64,000 nt of DNA, from contig NW_020844270.1 in the NCBI RefSeq assembly GCF_003704095.1, positions 682,001 through 746,000 of the forward strand, written 5' to 3'. Shown here piece after piece: positions 1-52,566 of this stretch. Below the pieces are notes generated by a model, which saw only the letters and a program-made list of their open reading frames with translations, ran no database searches and was not told the DNA's origin. The number at the start of each line of letters is the position of its first letter. The first letter of the stretch is position 1. This stretch comes from Pocillopora damicornis. Its lineage: Eukaryota. A program made the translations under genes and the position numbers.

Positions 1-146
1 AAAAACTACCGTTTTTGACAGTTAACAGCTATCAACGAGCGCTTTTCATTCAACTAATTTATTCTTGTTTTCTCGTCACCATACTCCCACCAATAGCGTA
101 GCTTCACTTTCTGCATATAAGCCCACACACAACCCACAATTCCTCC

Positions 147-301
147 AATCGTTCTGACGAAGGGCTAACGCTCAAAAAGTCTGCTTTTTTACTGTTTACT
201 ATGGCAAATTTACGTTTTCAACTCAGTTGTTAACACTAAATTACCTGCTATACTCCCACCGACGCAGCGCCACAGTTTCTTCAGAAACTTACCCCCTTTA
301 T
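147..301 (+). mobile_element. Short hammerhead-bearing interspersed element (Penelope-type/retrozyme-like family A), degenerate ribozyme core
   Basis: Reads CTGACGAAGGGCTAACGCTCAAAAAGTC...AACTCAGTTGTTAACACTAAATTACCTGCTATACTCCCACCGACGCAGC...GAAACTTACCCCCTTTA. Alignable by eye to copies at 14178-14335, 21540-21836, 30985-31122 and 39765-39920. The GAAAC core is mutated to AAAAA in this copy. Confidence 0.75.
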
Positions 302-2842
302 AAATTTTAGGGTGTTTGACAGCTGACGGTTCAAATCCAATTAAGATGGTCTTTTAGTGCTCATTTAAATCGCCACTTTAAAAGATCCATAAAATAGCCA
401 TCCTAAAAGATTCTTAAAATCGCGCCTCTGCATCGCCTCTCGATTGGCCGCTTAATTTGTTGTCAAAGTTCCTTCGGATCAATACCTAAACTGTTCATTA
501 GACTTTCATTAAAACTGCTTACTTAAAAGTTCCTTAAAATTGTCTTTACAAAGCAACGTTGGAAAAGAAGGTCTTGTACTTATAGGTACACACAAAATGT
601 ATTGGTTAATGAGTCACACAAAATGACTTAGAACACCTGAGTCATTAGGGGTGGTTTTCAACAGCTTCAATCAGTAAAAAACGTATCAAATCTATTGGAT
701 GACTGCAAGTAGGGTGTTTTACTCTGCTTCAAGCTGTTTGCATACTGTCGAGATAAATAATTTTCAGTCATTTCATAGACCTTCAAAGTAAATGGCCATA
801 TTTATTAGAAGTTACTTCTGATTGGCCAGTCTTGTGCTCTAACAGAGCCCAGATTTGCGATAGGCTACATGATAAAGAGAAGCACTGAAACAACATAAAA
901 ATCGACTTAACTGTTGAACTGAAATTCAATTTAGGTGAGAAAATGTTATTGATATTTAAAAAATGTTCGGTGTGTATTTTCAGAAATAATCTGTAACAAT
1001 GTCTGACTTAATCTACGATTGGTCAATTTGAGATTAACAGGTGTAACAAGAATGAGCTAAGTTGCTACCCATAATAATTTTTCTCCCAGGTATCATAAGT
1101 AACATATATGATCTTCTAACTGTTCTCTCGTCTCCAAACAACAGTCACTGAAATTGGAATTCGAAGTGCATCAGAAGAACTATCTAATAATTATTTCCTA
1201 GAAGGAATAATTTTATATTTTTATATCTACTTATATTTTTCATTATCAGCAAATTTCTGTAGTTGTCCGAGCTGTTTTTTTTTGCAACGGTTTCCTTTTT
1301 ATAATACTTATATACTTGCGTTATTTTTTCTTAAATGGTATACAGGATATTAGTGCGCACAATTCGTATTCCTACTAGTCGCTCTCATAATATTTAGGAA
1401 TCTTTTTTGAGAATTAAAACGAGGTCTCCACTTTGAATTTGGTCTTATTGAGATATCTTTGATGAAGTGGTTTTTACAACACGCTATCTCATAATTGTCT
1501 CTTTGAGAAAGCATCCTTTGACTCCAAAACCTACTTCATTATGAAGTTCATTTCTGGCAAATGAAACTCCTGTGCTAGTTATACAAATTAATCAATCAGC
1601 CTCCTCTGGAATAGCAAATGTGTCAAATGTGTATCTTCTGTTTAAATCATGACTAATGATTGACGTTGGTGGTAGTCCTGACTATTTTCAAATTTTTGAA
1701 ACAGAGATACTAAATAAGCCCAGGATAAAATTGAAATCAAGCAGTGCTTTTTTGTTGCACGCCGGGTGGTTTATGCCCGGGTTATAATTAGAGCTTACAA
1801 GCCAAGGTAATCTTCCACTTACTTTGTCTTCATTGACAGAATTGAATTGAAAAAATGAAGTTGCTTATTATTAACCATATCTTTCTCAATCGCCTTTTAA
1901 ATAACATTAATTTAAGGATCGTCAACTTTGTTCGAAATTGCCCAAAGCTAAACTGAAAACTGTCTTGTATCAATTTTTACTTTAAGAATTTCGCACAGTT
2001 AAAGACTGAAAGAGACAATGAACATATAGAGAAAGGAAAACGAAGAAGCACACGTATTAATAACATCGATCGAAAGTTGAGTTTTCGTCCATAAAAAACT
2101 CAAAGTTTTTGGAGTTAAGTTGAGTTGAGTTGAATCTAGAGAAATTAAATTGAAGTCAATGGAGTTATGCTGATAACTCATCAGTGTCTTCATTTGATCC
2201 TTCTTATTTTTATTATTTATGTTTTCTTTCAGTTTCCATTGTCCTTTAGAAAACCTCAAAATGTAAATGATATCTTCCTGGGAATTTAACACAAACGCGT
2301 GTGCTAGAACATTCTCCCTGATTTGCATAACTTTGAAGTCAATACGTTATTAGCAATATTCAGCGGGTATGCGCGAACTCCTTGTGCCAGCTGATAACAA
2401 CATACACGACCGACAATACCTTGAAATAAAAACTCCTTAAGGAATAATTTGAAGGTGTCGTAATGACCAAGAGAGGGATCATTATTGGTTGAAACGAGGT
2501 CTCAGCATCTGAGGTGCAAGGCAATAACACTATGGAAGAAAATTAGTCACCTGCTTCACCTGTCACAGTGATCACTCAAAATGATGACAGCATGCGAAAC
2601 ATTTAATGGGTTTCCTCGATCTGCGTCGCCAAAAATTTCGTTCAAAATACGTATTCTGAGATAATTGTAAGTAAAGGCCCAATATTTGATACTTTATATC
2701 GTTTAAATTCAATAGTATGATATTTTTGACGGTCATAAGAAGCAATACAAGGAGTTGTATCGCTCATGTGTAAACGAAACACATATTTCAACAGATTTGT
2801 GGAAGACTTCATCTAAAGGCAATAAGGGTACAAACGTTGATC

Positions 2843-4483
2843 ATGTTGAAGAAAACAGAAGTAGGAAAAGCAACTCGAAGGAAATACCCAAAGGTAGAGG
2901 AGAAGAAAAGGAAGAGCGCTGACAGCAGAAACAAGACAAGATTTAGCAGGACAAAAGCAGCGACAAACGAAGGGAATACATTCAGATACGAGGCAGAAAT
3001 TCAAGAAAACACAGCGATTGAAAGAAATGCCTCAGAAATTTGCAGTTACCCCGAAGAAAAGCATGTTAATGAAATGCAAAGTGAAGGAGAGCTAAAAGTT
3101 GCGAGATGCGACTTTCGAAAGCTAAGAAGTTTTGACAAGGAAAGCATTGATGACTCTCTCAGCATGATATCTTTAAATTCTCGACCAACGTCAGCCGTTA
3201 CTGATTTTGCAGAGGAAGTGAAACTTGAAAGTGATGAAGAATTTTCAAGTTTGGAGAAATTAAACGAAAACGATCAATTTCTGATGCGGAAGATTTCAAA
3301 TGAGAGCAATTCGAGTGATTTGGAAATTTCAGTTGACAAAGGGTCGCCAAGGATACAAGGCATTGAAAATCGAGAAGAAAGTGATTTGGTTGACGAGGAA
3401 ACGGAGAAAGACAATTCCAGGAACACAATTGCTATTCTTCCCTTAGAAGAAGTAGAGATAATAGAAGAGAAAGAAAATAAAAAAGCCAATGTTAAATCTG
3501 CATGGGAATTGAATGAAAAATTCCTTTTAACAGCAGACTTTCCAGCCAGAATTTGGGAAGAGAAGATTAATGGAAAAGCAATGAATGCAAGAAGGAAGTC
3601 ATCTGAACTATTTAATGCAAGTTTTCCTCCATTATCTTCAGTCTCTGAATTACGAAGAGGCTCATATCCTATTTCACCTATGATGTCCTCAGGTTCACCA
3701 CGTGAGCTTCCATTACTATCGGGAAGACAATGCAAAGTTAAACTTCCCACGCATTTCCCAGGGGTGCCCTCCCCTGAAGTCGAAGGTGATTCCGAGATCA
3801 AGTCTTCGGATGATGAGTTGTTAAATGCTTTACTCCTGGAGAAAGGACAAAAGGCAAGGGGAAATAATGCAAAATTACACAAAAAACGAATTGATGTTCC
3901 CGGAAAACAGGGAAATAATTTGACAATTTCCTCCACTAGGTCATCTCCCATTCTAAGTAGATCGCACTCACCAGTGGCATCTACAGAAACTCTTGCAATG
4001 AATGTTGCATCTACTGAATACCTCGCTACCCGAGTTGTCACCCAACTAGACTGTGCTTTACAAGAGACTGTCAACGTCAGCAAAAACAGATCAACGATTC
4101 GCGCAGGTTGTGTGACGCCAAATTTGATGCCCCAAAGGTACAGCTCTCTTTCATTTCGTCCAACCACGAGCAACTATTTCAGGGGAACAAGCAATTCACT
4201 TACGCTACCCACAGTTCAAGACAAATGCAGCAAAAGTTTACCAAATTTGACGGATAATAAAACTAAAAGAATGTTTGTGACATTCGACAAAGATCTTCCT
4301 CGCGCAAAAGTAGTCGACTTGGAGGGAAAAAGTGACGTCTCACAGAAATGTCGTCTAATTAACCGCAGATTATCCAGCGAAGACGCATTAGTAAGGGCCA
4401 TGCTCGACAAAAAAATTCAAAAGAAGACAATGGTAAGAAAGTGGGTTGTTTCATCTTCGCAAAGTACATTAACTGCAGAGTAA
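2843..4483 (+). CDS. Uncharacterised ~546-aa Ser/Glu/Lys-rich, probably disordered protein; single coding exon
   Basis: 1.64 kb open frame in AT-rich DNA, first ATG at 2843. A likely 5'UTR intron lies upstream (donor GTAAGT ~2667, acceptor TTTCAACAG ~2793). Several RRxS motifs (RRKSS, RRGSY, RRLSS). No recognisable domain. Confidence 0.75.
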   Translation: MLKKTEVGKATRRKYPKVEEKKRKSADSRNKTRFSRTKAATNEGNTFRYEAEIQENTAIERNASEICSYPEEKHVNEMQSEGELKVARCDFRKLRSFDKESIDDSLSMISLNSRPTSAVTDFAEEVKLESDEEFSSLEKLNENDQFLMRKISNESNSSDLEISVDKGSPRIQGIENREESDLVDEETEKDNSRNTIAILPLEEVEIIEEKENKKANVKSAWELNEKFLLTADFPARIWEEKINGKAMNARRKSSELFNASFPPLSSVSELRRGSYPISPMMSSGSPRELPLLSGRQCKVKLPTHFPGVPSPEVEGDSEIKSSDDELLNALLLEKGQKARGNNAKLHKKRIDVPGKQGNNLTISSTRSSPILSRSHSPVASTETLAMNVASTEYLATRVVTQLDCALQETVNVSKNRSTIRAGCVTPNLMPQRYSSLSFRPTTSNYFRGTSNSLTLPTVQDKCSKSLPNLTDNKTKRMFVTFDKDLPRAKVVDLEGKSDVSQKCRLINRRLSSEDALVRAMLDKKIQKKTMVRKWVVSSSQSTLTAE

Positions 4484-6292: not shown

Positions 6293-6620
6293 AAAGGCCA
6301 GTCACTATTCATCACCTCGGAAGAAGGGGGTCAGGGGGTCGGGGGGTCTTGGGGCTGGGGGCTGGGGGCCGGGGATCGGGGGGATCGGGGGATCGGAGGA
6401 TCTGGAGAATTACATGCTTTTAAGGGAGAACGGTGGGGGGATCAGTGGTCTTTAACTGAGTATTAAGGGGGATTATAGGATATTGAGTGTTTCTTTTATA
6501 ATTTAAACTATGTTACAATTACCTGCATAGAGTTTCAACATTAACGATTGCACGTAACCCACCGTTGTGTGTAAATCAATGTTATTGTCACTGAACACCC
6601 TGCCCCCGGCGATAAATTTT
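6293..6620. repeat. G-rich MITE-like interspersed repeat, copy 2 (with GGGGG(A/T)C micro-repeats)
   Basis: Homologous by eye to 4750-5015; explains the spurious Gly-rich ORF 6273-6455. Confidence 0.55.
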
Positions 6621-6691: not shown

Positions 6692-9600
6692 TCATCCACC
6701 ATCTTGATGCTGTTGCCTGCCCGAAGCTGTCAAAATAATCATTTCCAGCTTCCTCTGCTCCTTGGTCTTCTTCGGCTTCTTCCTTTGGTTTTTTCTCCTT
6801 TGTTCCAGCTTCTTCTGCTCCTTCTTCCTCTCTATCTCTTCCTCTATGCGTCTTTGTTTTAAAATTTCCGCCAGTTCAGCCTAAAAAAGTACCAAGATGC
6901 AGTTAGCTTAACAGGAGTTTTTTTATATTCTCCTTCCATTTGCATCTAATCAAATCCCCCTTCCACTGCCGCATAGGGCTGGAATATAGTTTAATGCCCC
7001 GTTCACGCCACAGCTTAAACATGTTATAGGGCTATTTTTTTAAATTTTGTTATCCTCATAGAAGCTGCTTCAACCAATGTTTTTCGACTCCAAATTTAGC
7101 ATGTTAAAAATACAAGGTAGAGAGTGATTACTTGAATCTTATGGAAAAGTTCTCTGTGTATGATGTATGGAGTTCTCTGTGTATGATTTTCTTTCAGAAA
7201 AACTCGAATAACCTAAACATTTTTGCCTGGTGTGGATGGGATATAAGCCATTTCAAAATTTTCGTTGTTAATTTGTCGACATTGTTGAGTGTGTTATAAC
7301 TTGCGGAAAAAGTCCCGTGTTATCTCAGTTGCCCCTGAGTTTGTCATCTTGAGCAATCAAAGTGAACTTACAGTTGCCAAATTAGACTGCTTTGCAATTA
7401 AACGTCTTTAAACCGAGGCCAAAGTAATCACAACGACCAATCAGATCGAAGCGTACTGTAATACCATAATCGAAAATGGGTCTTTTAAACTAAACTGAAC
7501 TTCAGGCGTTACCTTGTATTTCGTCCTCCACAATGTTTCCACTATGTCCAAGAGAAATTGTTCATCCGGTAGTGTCAGGCTAAAGCTTATTGTCAATCCT
7601 TGTACCATGTTATCGTGACCAAAGAAGCCAAATTCTCCCCCTTCCCTATAGCAAGCGTAAGTGCCTCTTGTGGGGCACCTCCGATTTCCGCCATAGAATT
7701 GCATAACCTTTAGTGAAAGAGAACGGCTCTCATCTTCCTTAATAAGTCTGGTCACTTGCACTCGCGCGGTCACGTACGGGTTGTCAGGGCGACCGGTTTC
7801 ATTTATGGAAATAACTTTGCCTGTGAAAGCTGAAATGAAACATGTTAAAGAGGAGTATAGTCAGCTGCATTCATTTAGGTTTCATAGCACGAAAGAACCA
7901 AGAATAACACCACAAACATCTCAGCCCGTTACCGTTACAGAGTTACCAGACCCGCCCCACTCCCTATACAACGTTAAACCAGGGTGTCCCCTAGGATAAA
8001 TTATAGGGATGTTGTCTTGATTAGCTCATAGAATGATCTTTATCATTAGATTTTGGTAACGCCAATAATAATAATTCAGTGTCTGGCAGTCTATGAGAAT
8101 ATTGGAATTTGCGACAACTGGGTTTAACTGCAATGTCCAAGTGGACCGACGCCTCTTCTTTCAGCCGCAAAAATCTCTCGCTCAAACTTCAACAAAAAGG
8201 TCACTCATGAAACTTAACCGATTTACTTGAAAGATCCCCACCACCCGAATCTCTAACATTGTTATAAATCAGCTTATGTTTTTAACAAAGAATATCTGAA
8301 TATCGCAATTCAGTTATACTTCGTAGTGAATAACGTAAACTGGATACCGTAGATTCCGGTGTTAGTACTTACACATGTGCATATGTGCTCATGGTGACAC
8401 AATGATAGTCGACCATAACAATGGCATTAAAAACGAAGGCACTGAATCTTTCTATTAAGTAAACACTCTTGGGTCTGGTTTTCATGGTATGAAAAATAAT
8501 TATTTGGTTTTATCGCGTTGGTCAGTGGTATACATTCTCATTTGTTCCGTTTCCAGAGTTGACAATTTTTCACTGACACTGAGGTGAATAATTGTCTCAG
8601 TATATAACATACACAAACCCAAAAAGTAGTTTATTTCTTTCAATATTCCAAAAATGGTCGGAAATTAAATTTTTGACATGCGATTTTGTCTCTGGCTGCC
8701 TGGAGGTGAAAGATACTAGCTAATAACTTCCGAGCCAACCGATTAGTGCGTGAGGAAAGTACTATTCACCTGTGAAGTATATGTTAATGCTAACTATTGT
8801 TTTTGAAATATGTATATCAAGGATTACTCACCAAAAGTATATTGGCTTCTAAAGAAGGCTTCATAAAAATCTTTCGTAAAATTACGTATTACTGAAAATT
8901 AAGAAAATTTAAAACAATTAGTATAAATGACAACCAAACTTCATTGTATAAAACTGGACATGCAGAAATTTTTTCGCTTCTGAGGGAATGTTTGTTACAA
9001 TATTGAAATGAGGGTTTAGGCAGAGATCTTCCTTTCCCATTTTACACGTTTTTTATTCCTCTACTTTATCACCAGTTCACCATTGCATTTCAAGATTGTC
9101 AAAATTCAAAATGATTGGTAATCCTCTCTATCTGTAATTTTGTAAAAAATTATTTTGAGTCTTTTTCTTTTTAGTTTACCTTTTTAGGTTCGATAACTTC
9201 AAACTTTTAAAAAATATAATTATGCTCGCAGGAATACAGTTTTTTCTGTCGTGTCTGTCGATCAGTCAGGACAGACTCAAGTACGGTGAAAACTCACATT
9301 TCGCGAGAGAACTCCATAATGAGCATATTTCGCGCCAAAATATATCGTTTATAGATGTCTGACCGCTAAAATTGTTTCAACGAACTTTCACTGAGCTTGT
9401 ATCAAAGGAACTGGTCAGAAAATTCAACTACGCGGAAAAATGTGATCCTATTAAACGGAAAGATAGAACGGTAGTGGAATGGTGGGATGGCGGAATACCC
9501 TACGACGCGGAATGCCTTGTTGTGTGAAACAAAAGTCTCTCAAAAATGGAATTGCAATGGAATGCGGTAGGTTTTCTGTTTTGCATGTGAGAAAAGTTTT

Positions 9601-10383
9601 CTGTAACGCTCCTTGTAGCGTCATCATACATCATTTATTTCTTTTCAATGCTATAAAAACTGTGTTATATCAGTAGCCATATCCAGTCTTAAACTGCCTA
9701 ATTTTTTTTGGAAGAGCAAACAAAAATCTTCAAAAATCTAGTCTACGGTCCGGGGAAAACAAACAAAAAAATTGTTCCCAAGGTTTACACTGACAAGTGT
9801 AGAGAAAGGCGGAAATTTAGCACAAAGTAAGACATATTCAATACTTACTGTACCAATCCCATGATTGATCATAGGTCCATCCTGTACGCATGTCAGGTTG
9901 CATGCAAAGTTTATCGTCATAGAACGGAAGATATCTGCAGTTATGTCTCAGAAATCCAACGGTCATATGGAGTGAAGGAGATACGTACTTATCCTTGCAC
10001 GCGGTTGCGAAATTCATACATGTCTCACGGCAGGGCCTCAGTGGCATACCAATATGAAACGTATGAGTACAAGTGGCGATGTTCAGCGAACAGGTGTAGG
10101 CAAATATATCGGGTGGGCAAATTCTCTGGTCGACCTTATAGAACATGTCGTGCAGGTCTGGAAACTTAGGATTGAAACGGTACCTTCTCAGAAAACTTCG
10201 CCAGCTTATTCGAACCATTATCCTTACAAATTTACGTGGACCTCCATACCCCTTAACCAATATGTGCCTTCTGCACCTAACGATCTTCCGACTCCAGTCC
10301 TTACAATGGTCGATTTTTTTTCTCATGTCATCGCTAGAAACCGTCGCGGGAAGAAGCAACATGAATATCACAAGGAAATTCAT
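6692..10383 (-). CDS. Divergent secreted frizzled-related protein-like gene (signal peptide + Frizzled CRD + NTR/TIMP-like OB domain + basic coiled tail), ~366 aa
   Basis: Exons 10383-9849, 8891-8832, 7829-7513, 6880-6692; all GT-AG, phases 1,1,0, frame open throughout. Signal peptide MNFLVIFMLLLPATVSS. 10 Cys in CRD order, including PLRPCRETC and C..LP.....LC. NTR-like YTFAFTGKVISI...TARVQVTRLIK. Tail ERKKEQKKLEQRRKNQRKKPKK. Confidence 0.75.
8570..8790. repeat. Degenerate MITE-like repeat (GAGGTGAATAATTGT family) in intron
   Basis: CACTGAGGTGAATAATTGT and TATTCACC motifs; a related ACAATTATTCACC fragment lies near 43210. Confidence 0.4.
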
Positions 10384-21844: not shown

Positions 21845-24800
21845 TTACTCAAACTGCTTACCTTTTCTTTTCAACTTTTTATTTCTCCTGTTTTTTTTTC
21901 GTCCAGAACTTTTCACTGCTAGACGTCTTTCCCACTTTCTGAATTTTTCCACCCAGGCTCTCTCCCAAGGGACGATCAAACCCGTATCACGAAACAAGTA
22001 GAGTTTGTGCTGTTCAGCAACCACGTGACCGGCCACTAAGAAAGAGGCGTCTACCTTGGGAACCTGTGGACAGTTGCATGTGGTATTCCTGTGCAGGTAA
22101 ATAGAGTCTCCCTTCCTCAAGTGAATAGAGCTTTTTTGTAGGATCCTCTCAATTTTTGCCTCTATTACTCCGCCATTGTCCTTCTCTGTAGTTGAGGTGA
22201 TGAATACTTTTAGGACTGTGGACGGAATGCACATAAATTAAAGTAGCAGTTAGATGCTGTGTCGTAAATTTTTCATACTAAGAAACAAAAAAGACTTGTT
22301 ATTAAAACAAAAGGGGGTCTTAATGGGGTAATGGCCTTTACTGGTAAAGGTTAAACTTTTGGCCAATTTACGGCCAATAGTTTGTAGCATTACATCTTTG
22401 TCACCAGAAATTTTTTACGGTTATTTTTTTTTCTACGGCTAGCGGTTAAAATTTGTTAATTTGTTAATTGGGCCATTTTACGGCTAACGGTTAACCTCAT
22501 TAAATCGTTATTAAAAGGCTACACTGATGTAGATCCAAAGTTCTTGATGATTTCTTTATCGACTTATTACCCAAACAATTACCCACTCGTAGAACTCAGT
22601 GCAAGTAAACCGTTTGTTCTTACTGGCATTAACCCTTTAACATCTAAGAGTGACTATCATCTAGTTTTTCCCAACAATATCACCCCTGAATCACACATAA
22701 AGGTTACGACAATAAAAGACATGATCACCAACTAAAGATACTCTTGATTGTTGGACAAATTCTTCATGTCACTACCTTGAAAAATTTACCGAGAACAGTA
22801 TGGAGAATACGCATATTGATCTTAGGGCGTAAAGAGCTAATATGGTTTTCACATTTACTTTATATACCGGTAAACATTTTAAAGGACCTGTGTAAAGCAT
22901 TTAAAAAGCATGTAATATATGTGTTAACGCTTTCACACAGTTTCTTTACGTGCGTTTAAACTTGACCTTGCAACCTTTTTGTTAAAAAAAAAAAAATGCA
23001 TGCACATCGATGATCGTGAGGACGAATAAAGCCGGATTCTGAACCGAGGCCTCCAACGTAGCACTTTAGTAGAAATATCATGAAAAAGTGGGTCCGGTCT
23101 CATCTGTGTGATAACAAGTATCATTCTGTGCGTAAAACCCTGAATTGTTTTCGCTAGATACTTCAATGACTGTTTCAAAGACGTGTGCCGTACATGCGGG
23201 CCAAATAATTCAACAGCTTAGGAATGCAAACCAAAACAACTTACTGAAATGGTAAGAATTCCTTTTATACCGCTGGTAGTTTACACGAGGCTTGATGCAT
23301 CTGCAGGATGACACTGCAACACAAACGGTGAAGATAATCAAAAGATAAGTTTGTATTTAAGACAACAAGATTCAAAAGAAAAAAAATGCAATTGATACTA
23401 TTTCAAAAGATGTATGGCCCGCAGAGAAACAACGAAGCGTCATAGTTTACAGAGTTTTATTGCTGATCAAGTCATTTGAAATGTTTCGAGATTTTCTCAC
23501 TTTGTCAATTATTTAAAACATCGTTCTCCTAAGACTTTCGGGAGGTACTGCGGCCGTTGTCCATGTCGCGCCGTCGACCATTGACCATTACAGTCATAAA
23601 TCGGAGACGGTTTTTGAGAGATGTCAACTCAAAATTCATTCAAGTGAGAGAGAAGTTACCGAAACGAATGATTTCATGTTAAGTCTACTTCATGGTCTTT
23701 CTCTGGAAAGTCAGTTACGCAACCCTTTTCCCTTCGCGTCCACAATGGGACCTTAAATACGACAACGGCGAGTGTGTACGACAGCGATCGGGAACTGGGG
23801 TAATGGGGAGAGGAAACCGTCGTCAATGGCGAAAAATAGGATTTCAAGGCTGCAGAGGAAGCGAAGGGACGGGTGGGACGGGTTGATTTCATCTTCAATC
23901 TTTCGTTGAACGACGCAGCACGCAAGTTGTCATCTTGAACAGCATCTCATCGCTTACGTGCCTATTGGTTTGTTTTGCGTTGTTTGTTGTTGTTGTTGTT
24001 GTTGCAATTGTCTTTTTTCAAAATTAGATTCTGATAGTTTCATACCATATTAAGGTTTATGATGATATCAACACACTGATACAGTGTGCTGCAACTCATC
24101 TTTGATCTTTTCTTCAATTTCACAAATCAATTCAGGGTACTTAAGATGGCTACCCTTAGAAATCAGTTATTGGTCACTTTGGGTTAGCACAGCATTAACT
24201 TATCTCTTAATCAATACCTGAGAGCTAAGCTGATATATATATATATTCCTTATACGATATTTTGATTGGTCGAGAAAACCAAATACCACTTGAGTATTTC
24301 AACTTCAATTACAGCTCTAGCATTGATACCACTTACTTGAGGCATGCTATTATATTTTTTTTTGTAACTAATTCCGCAGCTACGTTTTAGCAACGAGGTG
24401 TCTCATCTAAATTTCAAACAGATCTATTTCGAAATACTCGATTTTGTTCAAGATCGTTCGCAGTAACCCCTAAAATATGACAATAATATTACTTAGGTAA
24501 TAATGCTCTTATAACATATGAATGAAATAATATTGTGGATCAGCCTCTGACTAATCTTTTACACGCAATCTGCGGTTGAGGTACTCTCCACTATACGGTT
24601 GACTTGGTGTATCTCAATACTTTCAGGCGAACCTTTCGCGTTTGCGTAAACTTCAAAGCTCCTATCAGCATAATCAACGTGTTTCTAGCCAAGTGGCTGT
24701 CGATATTTTACTTATTTTCTTAAGCAATAATCAACACCGCGTTTGCTGTCGAAATCGCGTGACGAAGTAAAAAAGAAATACGCATGAAGACCAATGCACT

Positions 24801-27453
24801 GCCTGTTGTTGTTTACTTTAACTATGTTGAGAATAAAGCAAGTTATCGAGGGCTTCTCACCAAAAATAAACTTCGGTTTTCTTTCATGTTCTGTGGCCGG
24901 CGTTTAAACAGTTTTCCTTTCAAAGGCATCCCAATAAGTGCAGTCTATTAAGCAAATTAAATTATCGCAAAAATTTTAGGAATGTTGTAGGCAAGTTTTA
25001 ATAACTATAATAATCGGTTTACGGCAATTTACTCTGAAAGGGGCTTCATTTTCTAGAGCCGAGGTAATATCTTTTCAATGTTACACCAAAGTAAAAGAAA
25101 AATTCTGGAGTGAGATTGATGGACGAAAAGAATTGGCGGCAAATCGAAAGAAAACGGCACTCATAACGAGGCTTTCTCTCTACAAGTAAAACTAAACAGT
25201 ACATAATCTCCTGAACGGAAAGAAGACAAAGAAAATACTTCAAAACAGACAGTAACATGATTTAGTTTTAAGTTGGTCTTGCCATAGAGGCAGGGTTCGA
25301 ATAAAATAAAACCCTACGGTATGGAATTCGCGCGCTGTGTCCGAAATAATCCTTCAGTATTCAGTAAATTAGTTTTGGACTGGACCTGCGGAAAGACTTG
25401 ATAGGCCTCTTGAATACCTCTCGCACCCGCAAAAAACTTGGAATATATTTAGGCTTAACTCTAATAAAAAACTAAACAAAGGAAAAAGTAGTTCTAAAAA
25501 TGTAGTACATGTTCATTTAGTACATTATGATTCCTTTGCAACTTCCTTCTTTGGTTCCGATTTCAATGCCAGTGTCTTAAGTTTTTAAAGGAATAGCAGA
25601 CTAAACTATTTGTCCGCATTGTACTCTTTACCAGATATTGGGATCGGCAAGCAAACTTTCACACGTTTCTTAACTTCGTGTTAGATTTTTTAAATGGATT
25701 TCAATCATTTCCTGTCTGCCCTATGAACTCTGGGAGAGAGAGCTTCTGAAGAGCTGCTGTGTCAAGGATATAATGAATATGATATGATTTAAAGGCATCA
25801 CGCAATTCCTGTGGGCTTTTGAAAAAGAAGTCATATGTGCGTTAACTCTGCTGGCTTAATAACTACATTGCTGAACCTAAATGCAGCAATCTAATATCAC
25901 TGCAAAAGTAAAAATTTATTAATAGAAACTGAAAATATTTTTAGAACTTTTTATGACACGGTTTTGGTATTCAAGAACACAACATAATTTTGACCTTTCC
26001 ATCGTTAGAGACAATTTTTTGGTTGTTATCGACGATGTTCACAAATGTTTACAATTCAAGTAGAAAGATAGAGAAATATTTCAACTACGAAAGCCATACG
26101 CGAGCTCGAGAGGCATAGTCAAATGATGCACTCCAAAACTTCGGAGAAAAATCAATGGACAGATATGAATGGTTGACAAGTCTTTACCTACAAATAAATC
26201 ACACTCGGATTAAGAGACTGCAAGCATTCTTTCGTATTCGTGAAGTTGGAGTCACAGCAAATTAAAGGAACGTGACCACAAATTTGTTTGGCAGTTTGAA
26301 TATTTATCACCAAGAAAAGTGTAATTTCCTGTGAATTAATAGGAAAGTCAGCTGTGTTGACATAGGATTCTATGCCTGTACGATTCCTAAATTTTATGAG
26401 TTTTTTAATTTGGCCATATTTTATTTGAATCGAATTTACAAATTAAAACCCGGTTATCTTAATTCATGGATAGAAGCAACTCACAGGCTGGATATTCAAA
26501 GAAACGGACGAATGATAATTGAAAGTTACAAGGCTTGGTTAATCTAGTTTAATTAAAGCTTTGAAAAATCCGCCAACCCAGTCAGAAACAACAAAAGTTG
26601 ACAGTCAATCAAATGTTTGAAATTTCATTTAACCAACCTCATATAGGGTCAGTTTACGTGGCGTAAAAGTAGCCTAAAGATCGGTTTCAGAGAAGCGCAT
26701 GAAAAAAAAGTAACCCATGACCTGTAGAGTGAGTCGCCGTTTATAAGAACATTTTTGAATAAAGCAACGCCATATTTCGTAACTTTGTACACTAGATAAA
26801 CATTTAAAGAATTTGAGACTCTTAACGTTAACTGCATGATCATTCCTTTCAAGCCCTTAAATCCGAAGGGCTGGCGACAAAGGAGTATATTTGTCGTTTT
26901 GCGAGATCAAACGCTTAGTGGACCTCTTAGTGCAAATGAACAGTGAATAATCCTGATGAATTTTTAAGACGAACGATTTAATTAAGAAGCAAATAATACA
27001 GCCTTGATTTTACTTACCAGATTTAACAAAGGACTCAGGCTTGATGCAAACGTCGCTTTCATAGGATGGCAGGTCCTTACAAACGACGTCGGGGGGCCAC
27101 TCCCGGTTGTATTTTCGGATGGTAGGCATACACTCTCTCATGACCTTTTTGCAAACTGATCTGCACGGACGAATTGGCCTGGATTTAAACTCTGGTGCAC
27201 AGATGGGTAGGTGATAGGCACAGAGGAAAAATCCTGCATCAGCCGAACAGTTGATAGCGACGATGTCACTGTATAGCTCAATCCTTTGCCTGCTGTATTG
27301 TTGCGTGAGATGTTCAAGCGCATTAGGAAACATTGTCATGTTGTACGGCAAGTGTTTCTGGCAAATTGGAATCTTGATGGGCTCACATGTTCGGCCTGCC
27401 AATGTGATCACAATATCAAGGCAAAACACGACAGTTCCCATCAAAAGATACAT
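21845..27453 (-). CDS. SFRP3/4: Secreted frizzled-related protein, sFRP3/4 (FRZB-like), ~291 aa
   Basis: Exons 27453-27018 (signal peptide + 10-Cys CRD CEPIKIPIC..YNMTMFPN..PCRSVC), 23313-23245 (SSCRCIKPRVNYQRYKRNSYHF), 22215-21845 (NTR domain, TTCNCP..FLVAG..W..KFRKW, basic tail). Phases 1,1. A possible extra last exon is 21284-21256, via the donor after 21862. Confidence 0.92.
22320..22503. mobile_element. MITE-like element with terminal inverted repeats
   Basis: TTAATGGGGT...ACCTCATTAA ends and internal ACGGCTA(A/G)CGGTTAA repeats; related fragments at 1-30 and 305-345. Confidence 0.5.
22629..22840. mobile_element. ~210-bp TTAA-flanked MITE (family B, piggyBac-like ends)
   Basis: TTAACCCTTTAA...TAAGAGTGAC...GAATCACACAT..AAGGT...GAGAACAGTATGGAGAAT...AAAGAGCTAA; copies at 40967-41355, 44322-44870 and 53798-54011. 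Confidence 0.8.
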
Positions 27454-32307: not shown

Positions 32308-35300
32308 GGTCATTTATAATACGCTAATTCCATAAAATGTTCAAATGCACATGACAAGATTAAAAAACAAAATGAAAAGGCTAAAAAGATAAAATTACAA
32401 TTAAGAGTAAACTTACAATAATTTAAAAAGCTAAGATTACAATTAAAAGTAAACTCACAATAATAAAAACAATTCCAGGGCTTGCCTTCAAATTTCACTC
32501 AAAATTTTATAAGTTCATCATTTTCCAGACCTTAGCTTTATTTGCACATACTTGTTGTTCAGTCATCTGGGAGGTTCTGGCTGGTTTAAATTTTTCCTTT
32601 CAAACTTCCCATACCATTGCGACAGTTTTTTCATTTTTTGAGCAATGTAATTCTCTTCTATTTATAGGAGTAACAGACTAACAGTTCTTAGGGAACATCA
32701 AATCTCAAAAATCATCACAAAAAGTGCTTCAAAATATACTGCAGAGGCATTCAGATGGAGAACTTTGCATGTCTGGAAATTATTAGAACAGAGATCAAAT
32801 TCTTATGCCCATCCCTGGTATCTTCTCAAGTATACTGGACTCTTAGCTGTTGGAACTTTAGTTGTCAGATCAAAGATTTCTAGTGCCTCCTGTGGGCCGA
32901 AGTTGAGTCATAAGTCATCATCACAGCTTTCGCAGGGCAAAGACAAAGATGGGAAGAGATCACAGCCAAAATTTGATTTCAGAGAATTCTGGAAATTCCT
33001 GTGGCCTGATATTTGGCTTTTACTATTAGCAAGCTTGAGTGCTTTTGCAGTTGCCATGGTGAACATTGAATTACCGATGTTGCTTGGGAACCTTGTAAAT
33101 GCTGTCTCTAGTTTAACAAGTTGCAATCTAAACACAGACATATTTCAAGTATTAAGAGAACCTGCAATGAAATTGATATCACTTTATGGGGCTCAGTCAG
33201 TCCTTACATTTGCTTATATCTCATTTCTTTCTTGTTTGGGTGAGAGACTTGCAGAGCGAATGCGCAATGCTTTATTTGCATCATTGATACGACAAGACAT
33301 TGCTTTCTTTGATGATCATAAAACAGGAGAGCTAGTCAACAGGTATGTTTCCTCTTCTAAGGGTTGCTTGGCCAAAACAGCTTTATTTCATTTTCATGGA
33401 ATATCATTAATTTATAGCACATACATAGGGTATATGGAAAAAAAAAATACAAGTATTATATTGTGAGATACTGTGTGCTGCAAGGTGATAAATAGACATA
33501 CAAACCATACCATGAACATAACATTCACTCTGAAAAACCAAGGACTCCCAGCTACCACTTTCCGTAATATCATTACAGTGGTCCAATCCTCTAACAGTAT
33601 GAATTAACTTTAGATAAGTTCATATATTATTTTTTGTTCACTGCAAAATTTAGGTTAAAGGATTGTTCAGGGTAAGCTGCATGACATGCATGCATTTTGA
33701 TTGATTCTTATAATCTGTAAGATGACAGATGCTTAGATGATGCCACCATTACCAACATTTTGCCTTTCTATGATACATAAAAGGATTCCATGCTGCTGTG
33801 AGTCTGTACAGTAATAGATCACAGCAGACATCAAGATGTCATCTGCTTTGTGCCTAAACATTTCTCTGCTCCCCCAAACTGAATGCTAATTATTTCTTGA
33901 ATTGAAAATGTAGGTGGCTCACTTAGAACCTTTTTTTTATCTTATATGGTGCAAAATTTTACTTGAAGGTTGACCAGTGACATTCAAGATTTCAAGAGTG
34001 CATTTAAGCAGATTATTTCCCAAGGTCTGCGCAGTACAACTCAGACTGTCGGCTGTGTGGTATCACTTTATATGATTTCACCCAAACTGACAGGTGTAAT
34101 GATGGTCATCTTACCAGTTGTCATTATTGGTGGTACTTTGTTTGGCTCCCTATTAAGGAGGCTCTCCAAGGCTGCTCAAGAACAGGCTGCTAAGGCAACT
34201 GCAGTTGCTGATGAGGCACTTGGAAATGTGCGAACTGTGAGGGCATTTGCTATGGAAGATAAAGAAACTAAGTAAGATCATAACAAAGTCACTGTTGCCC
34301 TCACAGAGATGTATTTTTTGAATACATTTTTTTTTTTAATGCATCTTTTCTAAATAGAATCATGCATCTTTGTCTATCAACTTTCTGACTTTCTTACTTT
34401 CTGGAAGGTTCAGCGTGAAATGATGAAGTATCTTATGGCAAATATATGAGTTGTAATACAATAATGAGATTATCTACGTTACTTTCAAGTGAATTAACCC
34501 TCCCAGAAGTGATTAACATGTAACGTCTCCCTAATATCCTTACAGTATCCAGTAAACAGGTGATGAGAATACTCAAACTTATCAGGTTGAAGTTGTTGTC
34601 TTGATCTAACACCAAATTCTCATAACTTATTAACAAGAAATTGTGTAGCAGCTAGAAGGGAGATTCAACAATCAGATCTTGGGATTTAAAGGGTTAAGAG
34701 GTTTTTGTTTTAATTTTGTTTTGTAAATTGAGTTTTATTCTTAAGTTTTTTTTTAATTTGACAGTGTTTGTAAAGAAAAATATAAAATGGGCAAAAAATT
34801 TGTCAAGGATGAAATATTAGAGTATACTAAGAAATATTGTAATTATTCCTATGGTAATGAATACAATAATTTCATTAGCATTGGCTGGATCATTTTACCT
34901 TACAACTGAAATTGACTTGCAGCTTGTATCAAGATGAAGTGTCTAAATCCAAGGCACTGAATGAGATGTTAGGTGTTGGAGTTGGGTTGTTCCAAGGTTT
35001 GTCAAATCTAGCCATTAACGGCTTGGCACTGGTAGTGTTGTATTATGGTGGATCACTTCTTGCTGCCAAAGAAATGGAACCTGGAGACTTGATGAGCTTC
35101 CTGGTGGCTACACAGACTATACAAAGGTACTTTATTGGACAGTATGGCTCACACACCTTTCTTCAGGTCCTAGCACTTTTTTTTATAGCTAAAAGAAACA
35201 GTTAATAAGTTTTAAATTTTCATTGTGTGGGAAATTTAATAAAATAATGAGAGATTTTGGCTGCAAAAGAGCAACAACTTTAAGATCAAGACAAAACCCA

Positions 35301-38300
35301 ATGAGCTTTTTTCAGAATTCAGACCCTCTTAAGTCTGATTTTTGGGCTGTATGCTCAGCTATTGTAACAGTTCCAACTTTTTCAGTTGTTGTAATTTTTT
35401 CAATGTAGATTCTAATTTCATAATGAATAAAAAGAAAGGAACATGAAAATTGAACTGGTCAGAAAAAATTTAGACCAGGATAAACCTTTGAATCACTGAC
35501 AACCTTCTGTGTTGTGGGTTTGTATAATTACCTAATTAGGTGTTAATTTTCTTCTTTTACAATGTCAGGTCTTTAGGTCACATATCTCTCCTGTTTGGCC
35601 AAATTGTGCGTGGCATGAGCTCAGGAGCAAGGGTGTTTGAGTACCTAGCAATCGAACCCACCATACCAGTTACAGGTGGTAAACAAGTCCCCCTGGAGAA
35701 CATATGTGGAGAAGTTAGCTTCAAGGATGTTACTTTTGTGTATCCTACACGACCCATGCAAACTGTTCTTAAAGACTTTTCCCTGTCAGTGCCAGCTGGT
35801 AAGATGGTTGCTTTGTGTGGAAGTAGTGGAGCTGGCAAGTCAACTGTAGCAGCCCTGTTGGAGCGTTTTTATGATCTGAAGAGTGGAAGCATTTTTCTTG
35901 ATGGTCATGACATAACTTCCTTGGATCCCACATGGCTGAGGGGACATGTGATTGGATTTATTCACCAGGTATTTAGACTGTGAATAAAAGCAGGTGCACT
36001 TTATTAAGAACCAAATTAACTTACAAACATATTTTGAATTAAACAAGGTTGCTGTTACCAGAGAGTAGACAGGTGTGAAACAGCATGAGCATAAGTTCTA
36101 GTTATTGTTAATACACAGTTGTAATCCAAATTCTGTTCACTCATATTGATTTATTTGGGCATAGCTTTAAATTAAGTACTGTTAAAGTCAGTCAGAACTC
36201 TCTCTTAAAATCATTCATGTAGGAATAAAAAATGTGACATTTCACCTCATGATAACAAATTAAGCATGAATAAAAATATTTAAGAAATAGCCTTTTGAAA
36301 ACATTAAAATGTTAAACATTTTTTCAAAATATCATTTCCAACCAGCCTTCTGCTATCATTTTTATGTGTTTTGTTCTTTACATCCAGGAGCCTGTGCTGT
36401 TTGCCACTTCAGTTTTAGAGAACATACGTTATGGCCGCCCAGAAGCAACAGATGATGAGGTATATATAACAGACAACATCTTGTGTCATGATCATTGTCT
36501 GATGAATTCATCAATTTTTTGTTACATTATTTCCTTTGATTTTTTCCCATAATATGAAGGTTTTAGCAGCAGCTCAGCAAGCAAATGCTGATGGCTTCAT
36601 TAGAGATTTTCCTGAGGTAACTGATTGCACTGTATACTTTTGATCCCAGTCATTCTTTGGAATGGCTCAACTTTTGTGGTTGTCATTGTTCAGCAGATTA
36701 ATTTAATTCTGCTGTTTCATGTCATGTGATGTAAAAAAAGTTTCTAGCTTGTGGAAGCAAAAAAGTTAGTAGCAACTAAAATTTGAATCTGGGTGATCTG
36801 ACTGATGCAGTTGGCATCAAAGGCTTAAGTTTATAACCTCAAAGTCAGTTTCTATCAAAAGCGGCACATATTTCTCTTCTTTTATCTCAGTGGTCAACAT
36901 TTACACTTTAAAAAAGTTAAACCCAACTTTTCTTCACAATGTTTCCACAGATGTCACATTGTAGTTGTCACAGGGTCAACTTTTCCTAAGTCTTGGCATT
37001 AATCTTTTGTATCCTGCCATCTGAGTATCCCTGCAAAATGAAATCAGTAGCCCATAAGGCAACATTTGAAATGATGTTAGGGATCAGGCTGGGGTTGTCC
37101 AAAGAGTGCTTAATGTTATTCACAGCATGAATCACTACACAGAGGATTGTGTAGCATGCTCAAGTAAAACTAGTGAGTAAGTTCTTTGGGTAGTTTTTAA
37201 CAGCATTATCTGTCGTTTTTAACAATTAAGCCTAGTTTTCATATTAAATAGATATAGTAAAAGGAGTTTTTTTATGATATTGTACTCAAGCTTCAAGGTT
37301 CTAGTGCTATGTGTCGCAACTTTGCACAAATCTCACTTTATTCCACAGGGATACCAAACTGTCCTTGGAGAGAGAGGTGTTACTGTGTCAGGAGGACAGA
37401 AACAAAGGTGTGTAGTATTTAAAACTTTGATGAATATAAAGCAGAAAGTATCAGTCAGCTTTTTGCGGTTTTTGAGAAGAAGCTGCCAAATGAGTGATAG
37501 TTGGGTAAAACTTTTTTTTTTAATTATTTTGTTTGTTTGTTTTTTGCTAGGATTGCAATTGCCAGGGCACTTCTAAAGAACCCAGCCATTCTCATCCTAG
37601 ATGAAGCAACAAGGTATTTTCAGTATGCCATATAGACTCATTTCTTTTGCTTTTTATTAATTCAAATCAAATAATGATGTTTATTATATTTACAAAAATT
37701 CATAAAACGACAGAGATTATCCATGTTGATGGTGTTCCCTAAAGGAGTTAGCATTCATGAAGTTAGGTGAAAGTTCCACTTTTTTGATATTGGGGAATCT
37801 GCATTATTGATTTATTCAATTAATCTGATTTTACAAATGTTTTGGGCCAAGAAGTGTGTTGAGTGTCATCTTTCATTTACATCCAGTGCCTTAGATGCAG
37901 AATCTGAACGTGTTGTACAAGAAGCTTTGGACAAAGTTACTAAAGGTTTTAAATTTACTTCAATTCATAGCTAAAGTATTAGTCAAATGAATATAACTGA
38001 TTATAAGGTTGACCTGTACAATAATGTACACATGATAGCCTCTTTATGAGTTGCATATTTCAAGGGTTAACACTTCAAGACACTCTTTATGTTTACTGCA
38101 TCCATTTGTCTCAGTGGGTGTGTATGGAAAAGGTATTTTATCCTGAGTGATTTTAAAGAGAAAGTTGAGAAAATTAATAGTACTTTTCTACCAGTTAAGG
38201 GTCATTCTCCATGATGAATAACTGTGACCATAGACTTGACATTTCTTGTAGCTTTGTCAAAGTTTTTCACAATAAGGACCTCCCAGCTTACTAATATTAT

Positions 38301-42498: not shown

Positions 42499-46578
<4,080 letters not shown>

Positions 46579-48021
46579 GTTTGACCCGAACTAACGCAAC
46601 CTTAAGGAAATTAGGGCTCACATCAGGCAGAAAACGAAATCTTCACTTTCATATCTATCTTATCATTTATCTGGTGTGAGAGTGTATCCGTGTAACAAGC
46701 AAATGAACGTAAATTTACGGTGATGACAAGTATAAAGGCGATGAAACACCTACGTCAATAGCTTCAGACCTAACCGATCGAACGCCAACGTCGATTAGAG
46801 ATATCCCGAGGGAATTTTTACCCAGTGGGATTGGGGCTAGTACTGAGTCTCTCAATGGCACGAGCTAAGCCCGGTCAGCCAAATGCCAAGTACCTTTTCT
46901 TCAAATCCTCGCTTGATTTTTCTTCTTTCTTTTTTTGGGGAAGAAAAGTTGTAAAACTCGCTGTCTGATAGAATAGGTAAAAAAAAAAAGAAAAAAATTA
47001 TAGCCAAAGAAATTATAACCGCAATTAAGGTTACCATAAGACTTGAACCGCAAGTCAGAATCCAGGCTTACGGAGCAACACAAGCTTTTTTTCTTGGAGC
47101 GGAAATGACATTTTCAAGGCCCTCTTAGCTGAGATGACTAGGTTCGCGCCCCGAAAAAATGGACACTGTCATTTTCTCGACGTAATTATTCAAATCTTGG
47201 TTGGGGATAATTTTTTTACATAGAAAAGGGCAGGCATGTAATTGCCCAGCTGGCAGCAAGTTTAATAAGATCTTCCTATATTTTTTTGTGGTAAAAAGTT
47301 CAGTTATCTCATTTGATTGTTAGAGAACATTGACAGGAAAGTTAAGCCTATTTAGACGAATAACGACCACTGTATGTGTATCGAGAAGCGGTCAGATCTC
47401 AGTAGCTTATGTTGCTGGTGACCGAGTAAACATATACTTTCCAGACTGAAGCCCTTCCTGAACGAGGTCTGATTTCGTATGTCACTCGTCAGTGAAGATG
47501 GTGATAATAGATTGCAATCGGTTCGCTCAATGCAACATCTTTCAACCTGTTGTCATGTGATACAACCTCTTTCTAGGAATCGACATGTTTCCGCCAAAGA
47601 CGATGTAAATGGGCGTGTGCTCAAACGAGGGTCGAAATCAACGCCCTTCTGGTGTTTCCAATGGTGCAAAAATAAAATAAGCTTGTGAGTGCAATTCACT
47701 CAAAACTGTGTGATCTCTTTTATTTTGGTGAACGATTTTTCTCTTAATAGGTGAACTGTTGCTCTCTGCTCGCAACAATAAAGAGATCAATAAGATCATC
47801 AATGGCGTCACTACTTTTAATAGAAAAGACCACGAACTCGCCTCAGGAAAGTGTCAATAGCGGATGAAATCATCTGCTAACTGAGACTCAGCGATTTTTC
47901 CTGCCAAGATTGGTCTTGATTACGCTTAAATTTGACGCGCAAAATTTGTCGAAAACTTCATTTGAGCAACCTCACTTGATTGCAAAATATACTGGAATAC
48001 AAGGGAATCAAGATAGCGCTC

Positions 48022-51000: not shown

Positions 51001-52566
51001 AAAATGAGATGACTTTCTGGGACTAATTTAGACAGTAATGTGATGTAAGCAATGAAGTAATTCTAGCTATACTACCTTCAATAAATCTTGTTCTTGTCGC
51101 TAACAGTGGCGACAGCAACAGGAAAAACAGCGGTACAGCACACTCCCGCCCGCCCCGCTCTCCAAGCCACGGTACAAAGGAACAAGCCAGCAAGACCAAG
51201 CTTGAGCGACTATCAAAGCAAATCTCAGAATTTAGGACTTTCCTTTAAGAGCAACCCATCTGTCGCGGCTTTTCCAAGCTCTGTGGAGAATCAAAACACA
51301 CAGGCTCTATTCACTAACGCGCTCGGGGATCAATACACGCGTCTGGCTTCCAACTACGATCACCTCGATCAACCAAAACCCAACCACGACCTACTTCAAA
51401 CATTTTATCCAGGCACATTTCAAGAAGGCTCACACACTGGAGAAACTGTTGCTGTGGGTCAACCGCTGTTCGTTCAAAAAGCCCGCGTCCAAACCACCAC
51501 TAATCCTCAAAACAAAATGTCCAGCTTCCTAAAAAATGCAATAAATAACTTCAATAAGCCCTCATTAAGCACGCCTGCTAGTACCAGTACATATAAAGGA
51601 CCAAGTATTAACTCTCAACCACAGGTTTTGAATAAATCTACCACAAAAATTAATGCTCAAAGTAACCCGGACGAAAATATCGACGAAAATCTTGCAGCTA
51701 TGCGCGATCCCGAAAAAGACGACAGCAATGGTTCAATCGATGAAAAACCTACTCCGGAACCTGGAATTGACGATAAACCAGCTAACCAAGCCACCATCAT
51801 TCCTTCTAATGATCCCAGCTCATTGTCTTTGTCACAGAGACCTAGAGTACAATTAGAACCAATGAAACCTGTTTCAGACATGTCAAACGGGCTTGGAAAG
51901 CCGATTATGAAAGGAACCCCTACATCTGTAAACAAACCGCAGAATGCTGTAGCTCAACACAACACTGCTCCAGAAAAGCTTCAACAGCCTTCAGTCAACT
52001 TTGATGTCCTCAAAAACAAAATTATGCATACAACCAATGCAACTTTCCTACGGCGCATGCTCACGCTTATTCAAAAGATCACTCATCACAAAGACTTTTC
52101 GAAACTGCAAGCCCCTGCTCGGAGTCTGGTGACCCAGGCGAACACCGCTGTCCAGGCGCTCACTAATGCGTATAAAGAGAGAGTTTCGTCAACACCGCTG
52201 GCCGGTGGAAATGGTGATCAGCTATATCCCCTGAGTAAGAAGTCCGCTGTCCAGAGATTTAGTCAGGCGTACAACGGGAGAATTTCAGCTTCGCCGCTAA
52301 ATTTCGGAATTGTTAACCAGATTTATAGGAATGTCTATCCAGCGACCAAAAAGTCGACTCTCCCAGTGATGAATCAAGTGTATAACCCAAGGATTGCAGC
52401 CATAAGACCTGCTAACCAATTTTATGGCAACAACTATTCGGGGCTGACCAAGAAATTCCAAATAGCAAGGAATCCCTATTACCAGAACTATTACCAATAC
52501 AGACAACCGTATTACAGCAATTTGCAGAGTATGCAATACGGGTTATACAACGGCAATGAACCATGA
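48022..52566 (+). CDS. Uncharacterised secreted precursor A, 5 exons, ~638 aa (signal peptide, KR site, C-x23-C exon, long P/Q/N/S/T-rich region, Tyr-rich C-terminus)
   Basis: Exons 48022-48127, 48443-48568, 49782-49946, 50456-50515, 51107-52566; all introns GT-AG phase 1, frame open. N-terminus MLSVWLVVLSTLVAASLG-SIAPGKR. Confidence 0.8.
49515..49551 (-). ncRNA. Apparently intact minimal type I hammerhead ribozyme (Penelope-type) in intron 2 of precursor A, antisense
   Basis: Minus strand: CUCC-CUGAUGA-U-GCCG-UAGAA-CGGC-GAAA-G-CUC-GGAG followed by UGAAUAAA. Stem I CUCC/GGAG, stem II GCCG/CGGC, palindromic AGCU stem III, CUC cleavage triplet. Confidence 0.8.
50815..50930 (+). mobile_element. 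Degenerate tRNA-derived SINE remnant
   Basis: TCAAGCCCTGG...GTGTTTTGGGACAGGACACT...TCTCTTACCACCCAG...GAGTGCCGGTGAA resembles a widespread metazoan SINE body as I recall it; no intact tRNA cloverleaf. Confidence 0.4.

Follow-up and report, generated by a model that had tools for sequence, protein, structure and literature searches.

The stretch of Pocillopora damicornis DNA analysed here, 64,000 nucleotides (nt) of contig NW_020844270.1 (positions 682,001 to 746,000, assembly GCF_003704095.1) and referred to below as the window, carries on its minus strand two genes of sFRP type (sFRP, secreted Frizzled-related protein): a canonical sFRP3/4 gene (gene B) and, at 6692..10383, a highly divergent neighbour (gene A). 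In identity and history gene A is almost certainly orthologous to an old second sFRP3/4 gene of corals, known from species other than Pocillopora as a family termed group b here, and the first half of its Frizzled cysteine-rich domain (CRD) has been replaced. The gene has four exons encoding 366 amino acids (aa), with introns that are all GT-AG and lie in phases 1, 1 and 0. Exon 1 (9849..10383, 535 nt, residues 1–178) encodes a likely signal peptide (10333..10383, residues 1–17; a hydrophobic N-terminus read from the sequence), the divergent CRD and a Trp/Tyr-rich linker. Within the CRD a replaced stretch that is basic, aromatic and amphipathic (10156..10272, residues 38–76) is followed by an alignable part (9904..10155, residues 77–160), which comprises the helix before the third cysteine (C3) and the region from C3 to C10. 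After the first phase-1 intron comes a 60-nt micro-exon (exon 2, 8832..8891), in which the NTR domain starts and which has no CxC motif; the second phase-1 intron leads to exon 3 (7513..7829, 317 nt), encoding the NTR (netrin/OB-fold) domain with one cysteine pair (250 and 258), and the phase-0 intron to exon 4 (6692..6880, 189 nt), an added tail that is predicted to form a single E/K/R/Q-rich helix and has a basic patch and a conserved end motif. An original prediction, made from the sequence alone, had given genes A and B the same strand and the same layout. The strand was as described, whereas the layout was not: gene B has three coding exons, namely a CRD exon (27018..27453; Pfam Fz, 93 bits), a 69-nt micro-exon with CxC (23245..23313) and an NTR exon that already includes the basic tail and the stop codon (21845..22215; Pfam NTR, 44 bits).

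The translation of gene A is letter-for-letter that of protein P0005 (XP_027037624 / pdam_00004113), labelled by NCBI as an uncharacterized or ‘FZ domain-containing’ P. damicornis protein, and P. verrucosa and P. meandrina each have an almost identical protein on record. All three exon joints were found in contigs of four out of four sequencing runs, from four studies (one of these runs was typed as RNA by guess only), so that the predicted joining of exons 2–4 to exon 1 is borne out. Run X4 showed a 2-base allele at the first joint, and in two further runs the contigs stopped at 9849 with trailing loose letters that corresponded to exon 2. Contig depth was about 80–3600 over exons versus about 2–15 over introns, depths that cannot rank genes. 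Gene A is thus a real spliced gene. Downstream (3′) of its stop codon, at 6327–6405, seven copies of a G-rich short repeat of about 17 nt lie within transcribed sequence, and their length differed between runs.

The Pfam Fz model matched gene A with 26.1 bits (E about 3e-6 to 1.3e-5), below its cut-off of 32.1 bits, and the Pfam NTR model gave no match in the gene, which is why it is annotated as uncharacterized; it has likely been omitted from coral Wnt-pathway inventories. The best PDB sequence match was the CRD of mouse sFRP3 (1ijx, E 6e-4), and hhalign aligned gene A with group b at 98.7% over residues 78–301. Ten cysteines are present in the mature part encoded by exon 1 (27, 37, 89, 98, 105, 118, 122, 129, 149 and 160). 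Those corresponding to C3–C10 were invariant across a 49-row CRD alignment, whereas residues ~20–76 could not be aligned to any CRD, and C27 and C37 were placed in different registers by two alignments. The earlier statement that all ten CRD cysteines are kept therefore holds by count and spacing, by which C27 and C37 may be taken as C1 and C2, but only C3–C10 are alignable and no register for C1/C2 beat shuffled sequences: in four tests, 41, 21, 47 and 23 of 100 shuffles were as good as gene A against a profile of the block from C2 to the PN motif.

With an AlphaFold2 (AF2) model of the CRD alone, the first 13 ranks in Foldseek were all Frizzled or sFRP3 CRDs, none of them at E 0.001; a wide structure search with the same model returned just unrelated helical proteins at Z ~5, with the Fz2 and Fz4 CRDs at Z 4.1–4.2. 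The full-length AF2 model left the CRD unfolded. In the alignable part, confidence by predicted local distance difference test (pLDDT) was 51–85 per block, the CRD-only model being moderately sure of residues 75–164. The C-terminal region (residues 179–308) had NTR domains as its four best clusters in ESM Atlas (0.91–0.93). An AF2 model of the gene A NTR, built with group-b NTRs in its alignment, matched the NTR of PCOLCE1 (Z 9.2, root-mean-square deviation 4.3, 109 aligned residues, Foldseek E 6.8e-4), and its other top fold matches were agrin NtA, the meteorin NTR and TIMP3. On these predicted folds the C-terminal domain is still an NTR, in agreement with the original prediction. The charged tail at the end of the protein has no hydrophobic span, and the RNA-supported 366-aa model has no transmembrane part. 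By descent and architecture gene A is a member of the sFRP3/4 clade, but the first half of its CRD is not of the canonical form.

Relatives of gene A were few. Two word-based searches of 5.8 billion proteins returned just Pocillopora-like sequences plus one relative with 71% identity (P0002), in which, as in P0005, residues 3–14 were judged by eye to be hydrophobic. When 1.84 billion representatives were searched with a profile, seven hits were obtained (E up to 0.001), of which four were gene A or its fragments and three belonged to a coral sFRP3-like family, group b. Named members of this family come from Montipora (XP_068706361) and Acropora palmata, both labelled ‘secreted frizzled-related protein 3-like’, from Orbicella faveolata (‘frizzled-4-like’) and from Oculina patagonica. 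Their CRDs are of the ordinary kind, with a 37-aa segment between C2 and C3 and the canonical motif in 15 of 15 tested. The group-b micro-exon (51 nt) lacks CxC in all full-length members, whilst CxC is present in gene B and in the gene-B orthologue of a metagenome locus (L071); the absence of CxC from the gene A micro-exon was hence reported correctly, but the loss is ancestral to group b and not specific to gene A.

Gene order also linked gene A with group b. Locus L071 carries a gene-B orthologue (72% identity over 145 aa), a group-b gene and a convergent neighbour (52%), in the order and on the strands seen in the window, where the convergent frame (2774..4483, plus strand, 569 codons, no Pfam family) served as synteny marker; frames 46–52% identical to it stand beside group b in L065, L071 and L072. 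Group b thus adjoins the convergent neighbour also in L072 and in L065, its spliced form. Eight loci were fetched, three of which reach a neighbour (L065 and L072 being one locus), the other five being too short. L065 is 99–100% identical to L072, is without its three group-b introns and extends as far as the convergent gene, and so has the look of a contig from a spliced transcript within a metagenome collection. It also revealed an extra 36-nt linker exon in group b, which may be optional (P0023 versus P0036).

Phylogenetic trees, which were reconstructed without vertebrate sequences, so that the sFRP3/4 name comes from PDB matches and NCBI names, agreed with the gene order. In the NTR tree gene A and group b were joined with support of 99/99, within a clade (95/94) that also held gene B and two further sFRP-like genes, and in the tree of CRD core plus NTR gene A was joined to group b with 100/99. 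A clade of genes A and B was rejected by the approximately unbiased (AU) test (p-AU 0.0099). A quick CRD tree placed gene A inside an sFRP3/4 clade of 22 rows (SH-aLRT 99), as the original grouping with sFRPs had it; the clade also holds one long-branched non-sFRP row. Furthermore, a group-b NTR profile scored gene A at 37–44 bits against at most 18 for the 14 remaining NTR rows from this genome, and two group-b proteins used as queries turned up no further group-b gene of the ordinary kind (43 and 51 candidates scored, best identities ~40%), in an assembly that may be incomplete. An origin of gene A as a recent duplicate of gene B is rejected by synteny and the AU test. The duplication predates the split between Acropora/Montipora and Orbicella/Oculina, which we take to be a deep one, and the rebuilding is younger; the proposal of an old tandem duplicate of sFRP3/4 is thereby supported, with the remodelling set at a later date. 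An exon 1 of the group-b type was also found on a European Nucleotide Archive (ENA) contig (P0034); it has an ordinary first half, shares with P0002 the four residues before C3, was basal in the CRD tree and is a possible intermediate toward the rebuilt form.

The spacing between C37 and C89 is 51 aa, compared with 37 in gene B, and is the longest of 50 CRD rows (30–41 in the 47 others). A motif of the YNxTxxPN type is absent from gene A and present in all 18 other CRDs of the sFRP3/4 clade, although the pattern was also failed by 10 of 47 other coral CRDs. Both the longer segment and the exchange of the motif for an Arg/aromatic stretch were thus rightly read in the first inspection of the sequence. 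The replaced stretch (38–76) showed no detectable likeness to the canonical block from C2 to PN, its best register being no better than shuffles. Its origin was also sought. A compensated frameshift or an opposite-strand reading of group-b or gene-B DNA was unsupported, since one of 72 frame comparisons reached 4/200 shuffles over 12 residues, which is the chance level, and neither other reading frames nor alignments of the DNA outscored shuffled sequences. Internal duplication gave only weak self-matches, no repeat or element was found in exon 1, a phage origin of the exon found no tblastn match, and a displaced motif at residues 65–76, as placed by MAFFT, scored below shuffles.

The replacement went with a reversal of charge. 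The segment between C2 and C3 has a net charge of +11, the most basic of the 50 rows, and the whole CRD carries +11 to +16 in three of three rebuilt rows compared with values from −5 to 0 in group b (15 of 15 rows); the mature protein has +26. The stretch is both basic and amphipathic, with a hydrophobic moment of up to 0.9, and is flanked in Pocillopora by Arg-x-x-Arg sites that are not kept in P0002. Exon 4 has no counterpart in group b or gene B, and AF2 predicts a helix at residues 289–337 of the tail (pLDDT 89–95 at 311–330).

In order to locate these changes on the Wnt-binding surfaces, the Fz5/8 protein of the genome, which aligns gap-free to the Fz8 chain of 4F0A, was used for numbering. 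The lipid channel of Fz8 is described as Gln71, Phe72, Pro74, Ile78, Met122, Tyr125, Phe127 and Pro130, with Trp129 beside it (PMC6873803), and the index-finger cavity as including Ile46, Gly47, Tyr48, Ile95, Leu97, Leu147 and Met149 (PMC4683279). Four of the channel residues fall within the last ten residues before C3, which still align, and the others lie between C8 and C9, whilst the replaced stretch covers Ile46–Tyr48. The suggestion that the segment between C2 and C3 forms part of the palmitoleate groove consequently found little support, as the replaced part maps mainly to the index-finger site. The nine groove positions read D, M, Y, R, Y, P, L, M, T in gene A, D, L, Q, V, V, I, K, F, P in the group-b protein P0043 and L, Y, D, I, I, Y, R, W, P in gene B. 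Among the changes are Ile78 to Arg/Lys, Tyr125 to Pro/Arg and Trp129–Pro130 to Met–Thr, and by its sequence the groove of gene A appears changed, not plainly destroyed. Of the index-finger hydrophobics (Tyr48, Ile95, Leu97, Leu147 and Met149), P0043 retains 5/5 and gene A 2/5, Tyr48 being unplaceable and the others represented by Thr104, Thr106, Leu159 and Met161. Within the alignable part, where residues of both the groove and the index-finger site have changed, the loop between C5 and C6 is conserved and rich in His and hydrophobic residues: P0005 and P0002 agree at 11 of its 12 positions, position C5+4 is Phe, and the loop is wholly unlike the polar one of group b.

The change was concentrated on one branch. 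In alignable columns the stem leading to gene A measured 2.46 changes per site, followed by 0.15–0.16 to each tip, compared with 0.49 for the end branch of gene B (against its L071 orthologue) and 0.07–0.54 for the end branches of group b. Identity between P0005 and P0002 was 31/39 in the replaced stretch, 59/74 in the CRD core, 75/106 in the NTR and 38/55 in the tail. Among 12 near-full-length members of a 16-member cluster 20 positions varied, one of 134 in the CRD versus 19 of 232 elsewhere (Fisher p 0.0015). RNA contigs (40 of 74 variants shown) listed 13 variants in exon 1; the eight that change a residue all lie outside codons 29–161, and the three inside are silent. Of the 12 cysteines of the mature protein all 12 were kept, and the frame was intact in the three named Pocillopora species and in P0002 (71%). 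The pattern is that of a burst of change with purifying selection after it, not that of decay.

The charge reversal makes a change of ligand, or binding to glycosaminoglycans or membranes, plausible. The reading that we favour, at somewhat less than an even chance, is that gene A encodes a secreted protein tethered to polyanions that no longer binds Wnt in the Frizzled manner. Its product would be secreted, and with the rebuilt basic CRD and the tail it would adhere to polyanionic surfaces such as membranes, matrix or glycans of the heparan type; the two-site clasp of Frizzled on lipidated Wnt would probably be lost, and any residual effect on Wnt would probably be exerted by the NTR domain or by competing for glycans. 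Binding of Wnt8 by an isolated sFRP NTR domain has been described for Sfrp1 (PMC2542364). In this scheme the NTR fold, the core helices of the CRD and the helical tail are predicted by the models, and we infer secretion, pairing of C27 and C37 in a disulfide, loss of two-site Wnt binding and polyanion binding. A number of observations count against this reading or make its basis less sure. AF2 confidence for the CRD was low (mean pLDDT 58, and below 50 across most of residues 25–74), and the register before C3 shifted by one between aligners. The tree tool warned of long branches meeting, by which both rate and placement are less sure, and the CRD-only tree did not resolve the sister of gene A within sFRP3/4. 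The segment between C2 and C3 taken alone (0/51 positions varying, p 0.09) was not significantly more constrained than the rest, the NTR part of gene A has a charge of only +3 compared with +12 in gene B, and the rebuilt form has been seen so far only in Pocillopora and in one relative outside the genus (P0002). Finally, five of the nine groove positions are still hydrophobic in gene A, and group b already matches Fz8 at only 1/9 of them, with 6/9 hydrophobic, so that drift of the groove had set in earlier and is no proof that lipid binding was lost.

The last point bears on the possibility, which we hold to be doubtful, that gene A is still a Wnt-binding sFRP, with its lipid groove kept and a shift to narrower or different Wnts, the basic surfaces just raising retention in the matrix. 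Apart from the hydrophobic groove positions, it would fit the invariant C3–C10, the predicted and aligned helix before C3, the retained equivalents of Leu147 and Met149, the CRD as the most constrained part of the gene and the many Wnt genes of the genome (48 exon matches); against it stand Arg/Lys at Ile78, the loss of Tyr125 and Trp129–Pro130, three of five index-finger hydrophobics lost or unplaceable and the unalignable residues 20–76. Drift of a redundant copy under relaxed selection, with no distinct function, would account for the very long branch in a genome where the sFRP3/4 clade has three more members and Fz matches number at least 73, but it is highly improbable given a frame that is intact in three Pocillopora species and P0002, 12 of 12 mature cysteines kept, a CRD that is the least variable part and spliced RNA. 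By analogy with Sizzled and Crescent, gene A might instead act as an extracellular metalloprotease inhibitor or modulator through its C5–C6 loop or its TIMP-like NTR fold. These proteins are described as inhibiting BMP1/Tolloid by means of a loop that carries Asp92 and Phe94, and Sizzled is placed with sFRP1/2/5 (PMC9437010), whereas gene A groups with sFRP3/4. The conserved loop of gene A, with His, Phe and other hydrophobics unlike those of group b, and the TIMP and PCOLCE NTR domains among the best fold matches speak for such a role, yet the loop has His at C5+2 and no Asp/Glu in either P0005 or P0002, and a common fold shows no function; we regard the role as unlikely. By the numbering of the Sizzled report (PMC9437010), Asp92 is presumably the residue at C5+2.

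An amphipathic Arg/aromatic stretch that bound microbial membranes would make the product a cationic defence protein of the surface or mucus. The net charge of +26, the basic and amphipathic character of the stretch and spliced transcripts in coral RNA sets from four studies are in keeping with this role, but since the flanking Arg-x-x-Arg sites are not kept in P0002, release of a peptide is unlikely, and the stretch is invariant in the 12 cluster members. Defence peptides are often not invariant, and we think the role improbable. A broader and tentative suggestion, which we consider rather less than probable, is that an sFRP3/4 duplicate was rebuilt in the Pocillopora lineage into a new extracellular effector with a partner other than Wnt, be it a glycan, a membrane or a protease. 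The proposed parts of such an effector, equally tentative, would be a cationic amphipathic module in place of half the CRD, a new His/hydrophobic binding loop between C5 and C6 and the helical tail exon. If true, the sFRP3/4 branch would have left Wnt antagonism independently, in the manner of Sizzled, whilst other corals still have the orthologue in its unaltered form.

The genome has four genes of the sFRP3/4 clade. Besides genes A and B, these are two further CRD plus NTR genes on contigs C1564 (29.6–32.8 kb, L055) and C290 (45.7–48.1 kb, L056), which are sisters in the clade and have a single cysteine each in the NTR exon. At least 73 Fz-domain matches were found on contigs C2139, C2698, C2762, C3447 and C2558, many in tandem arrays of CRD exons that include Fz5/8-like and Fz1/2/7-like CRD repeats apart from receptor genes. 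One more CRD exon, divergent and preceded by a hydrophobic start (L054, contig C790, 40.3–40.6 kb), lies outside the sFRP3/4 clade, is about equally like Fz10, sFRP3, Fz8 and Sizzled and is perhaps an sFRP1/2/5 gene. Elsewhere in the window are an ABC transporter gene (32651–37576, plus strand, with ABC_membrane and ABC_tran exons), a LIX1-family gene (42499–46590, minus strand) and, on the plus strand, low-complexity frames at 51085–52566, 56556–56927 and 58730–61309 (Pro/Gln/Ser-rich; Lys-rich and hydrophobic at its start; an acidic exon), which possibly encode secreted proteins; no Pfam match was obtained for the three frames that were scanned.

No paper on gene A or group b was found in the literature searched, which for the most part did not cover subscription journals or bioRxiv supplements. 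The sFRP1/2/5 and sFRP3/4 groups are old and separate, both being present in cnidarians (PMC3516229), and in Pocillopora an sFRP3 and Wnt genes show enrichment in the tissue on the skeleton side (PMC13581030); the latter, a study of P. acuta, lists an aboral sFRP3 (g26050.t1) that could not be mapped to gene A or gene B. The setting is a much-studied reef-building genus. The first half of Frizzled CRDs is usually closely kept; here it was replaced in one lineage, the charge of the domain was reversed and the result has been held under selection. The closest comparison is with group b, which shares with gene A the position between a canonical sFRP3/4 gene and the convergent neighbour, the combination of CRD and NTR, the phase-1 micro-exon without CxC, NTR motifs and membership of one clade. 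Unlike gene A, group b has the 37-aa segment between C2 and C3 with YNxTxxPN, a neutral to acidic CRD and intact index-finger hydrophobics, as well as, in L072, the additional linker exon of 36 nt; it is without the tail exon, and identity between the two is just 19–29%. As the ancestral form stands at the same locus in other corals, the two make a clean pair of ancestor and derivative for how a Wnt-binding domain gains a new job. The Wnt antagonists sFRP3/FRZB and sFRP4, together with gene B, belong to the same clade as gene A for both domains, but in gene A the N-terminal half of the CRD is replaced and the Trp–Pro before C9 and the NTR CxC are lost. Sizzled and Crescent resemble what is proposed here in that an sFRP scaffold serves a non-Wnt job (PMC9437010), and differ in being sFRP1/2/5-like, in having an alignable CRD and in their essential Asp, the counterpart of which is His in gene A.

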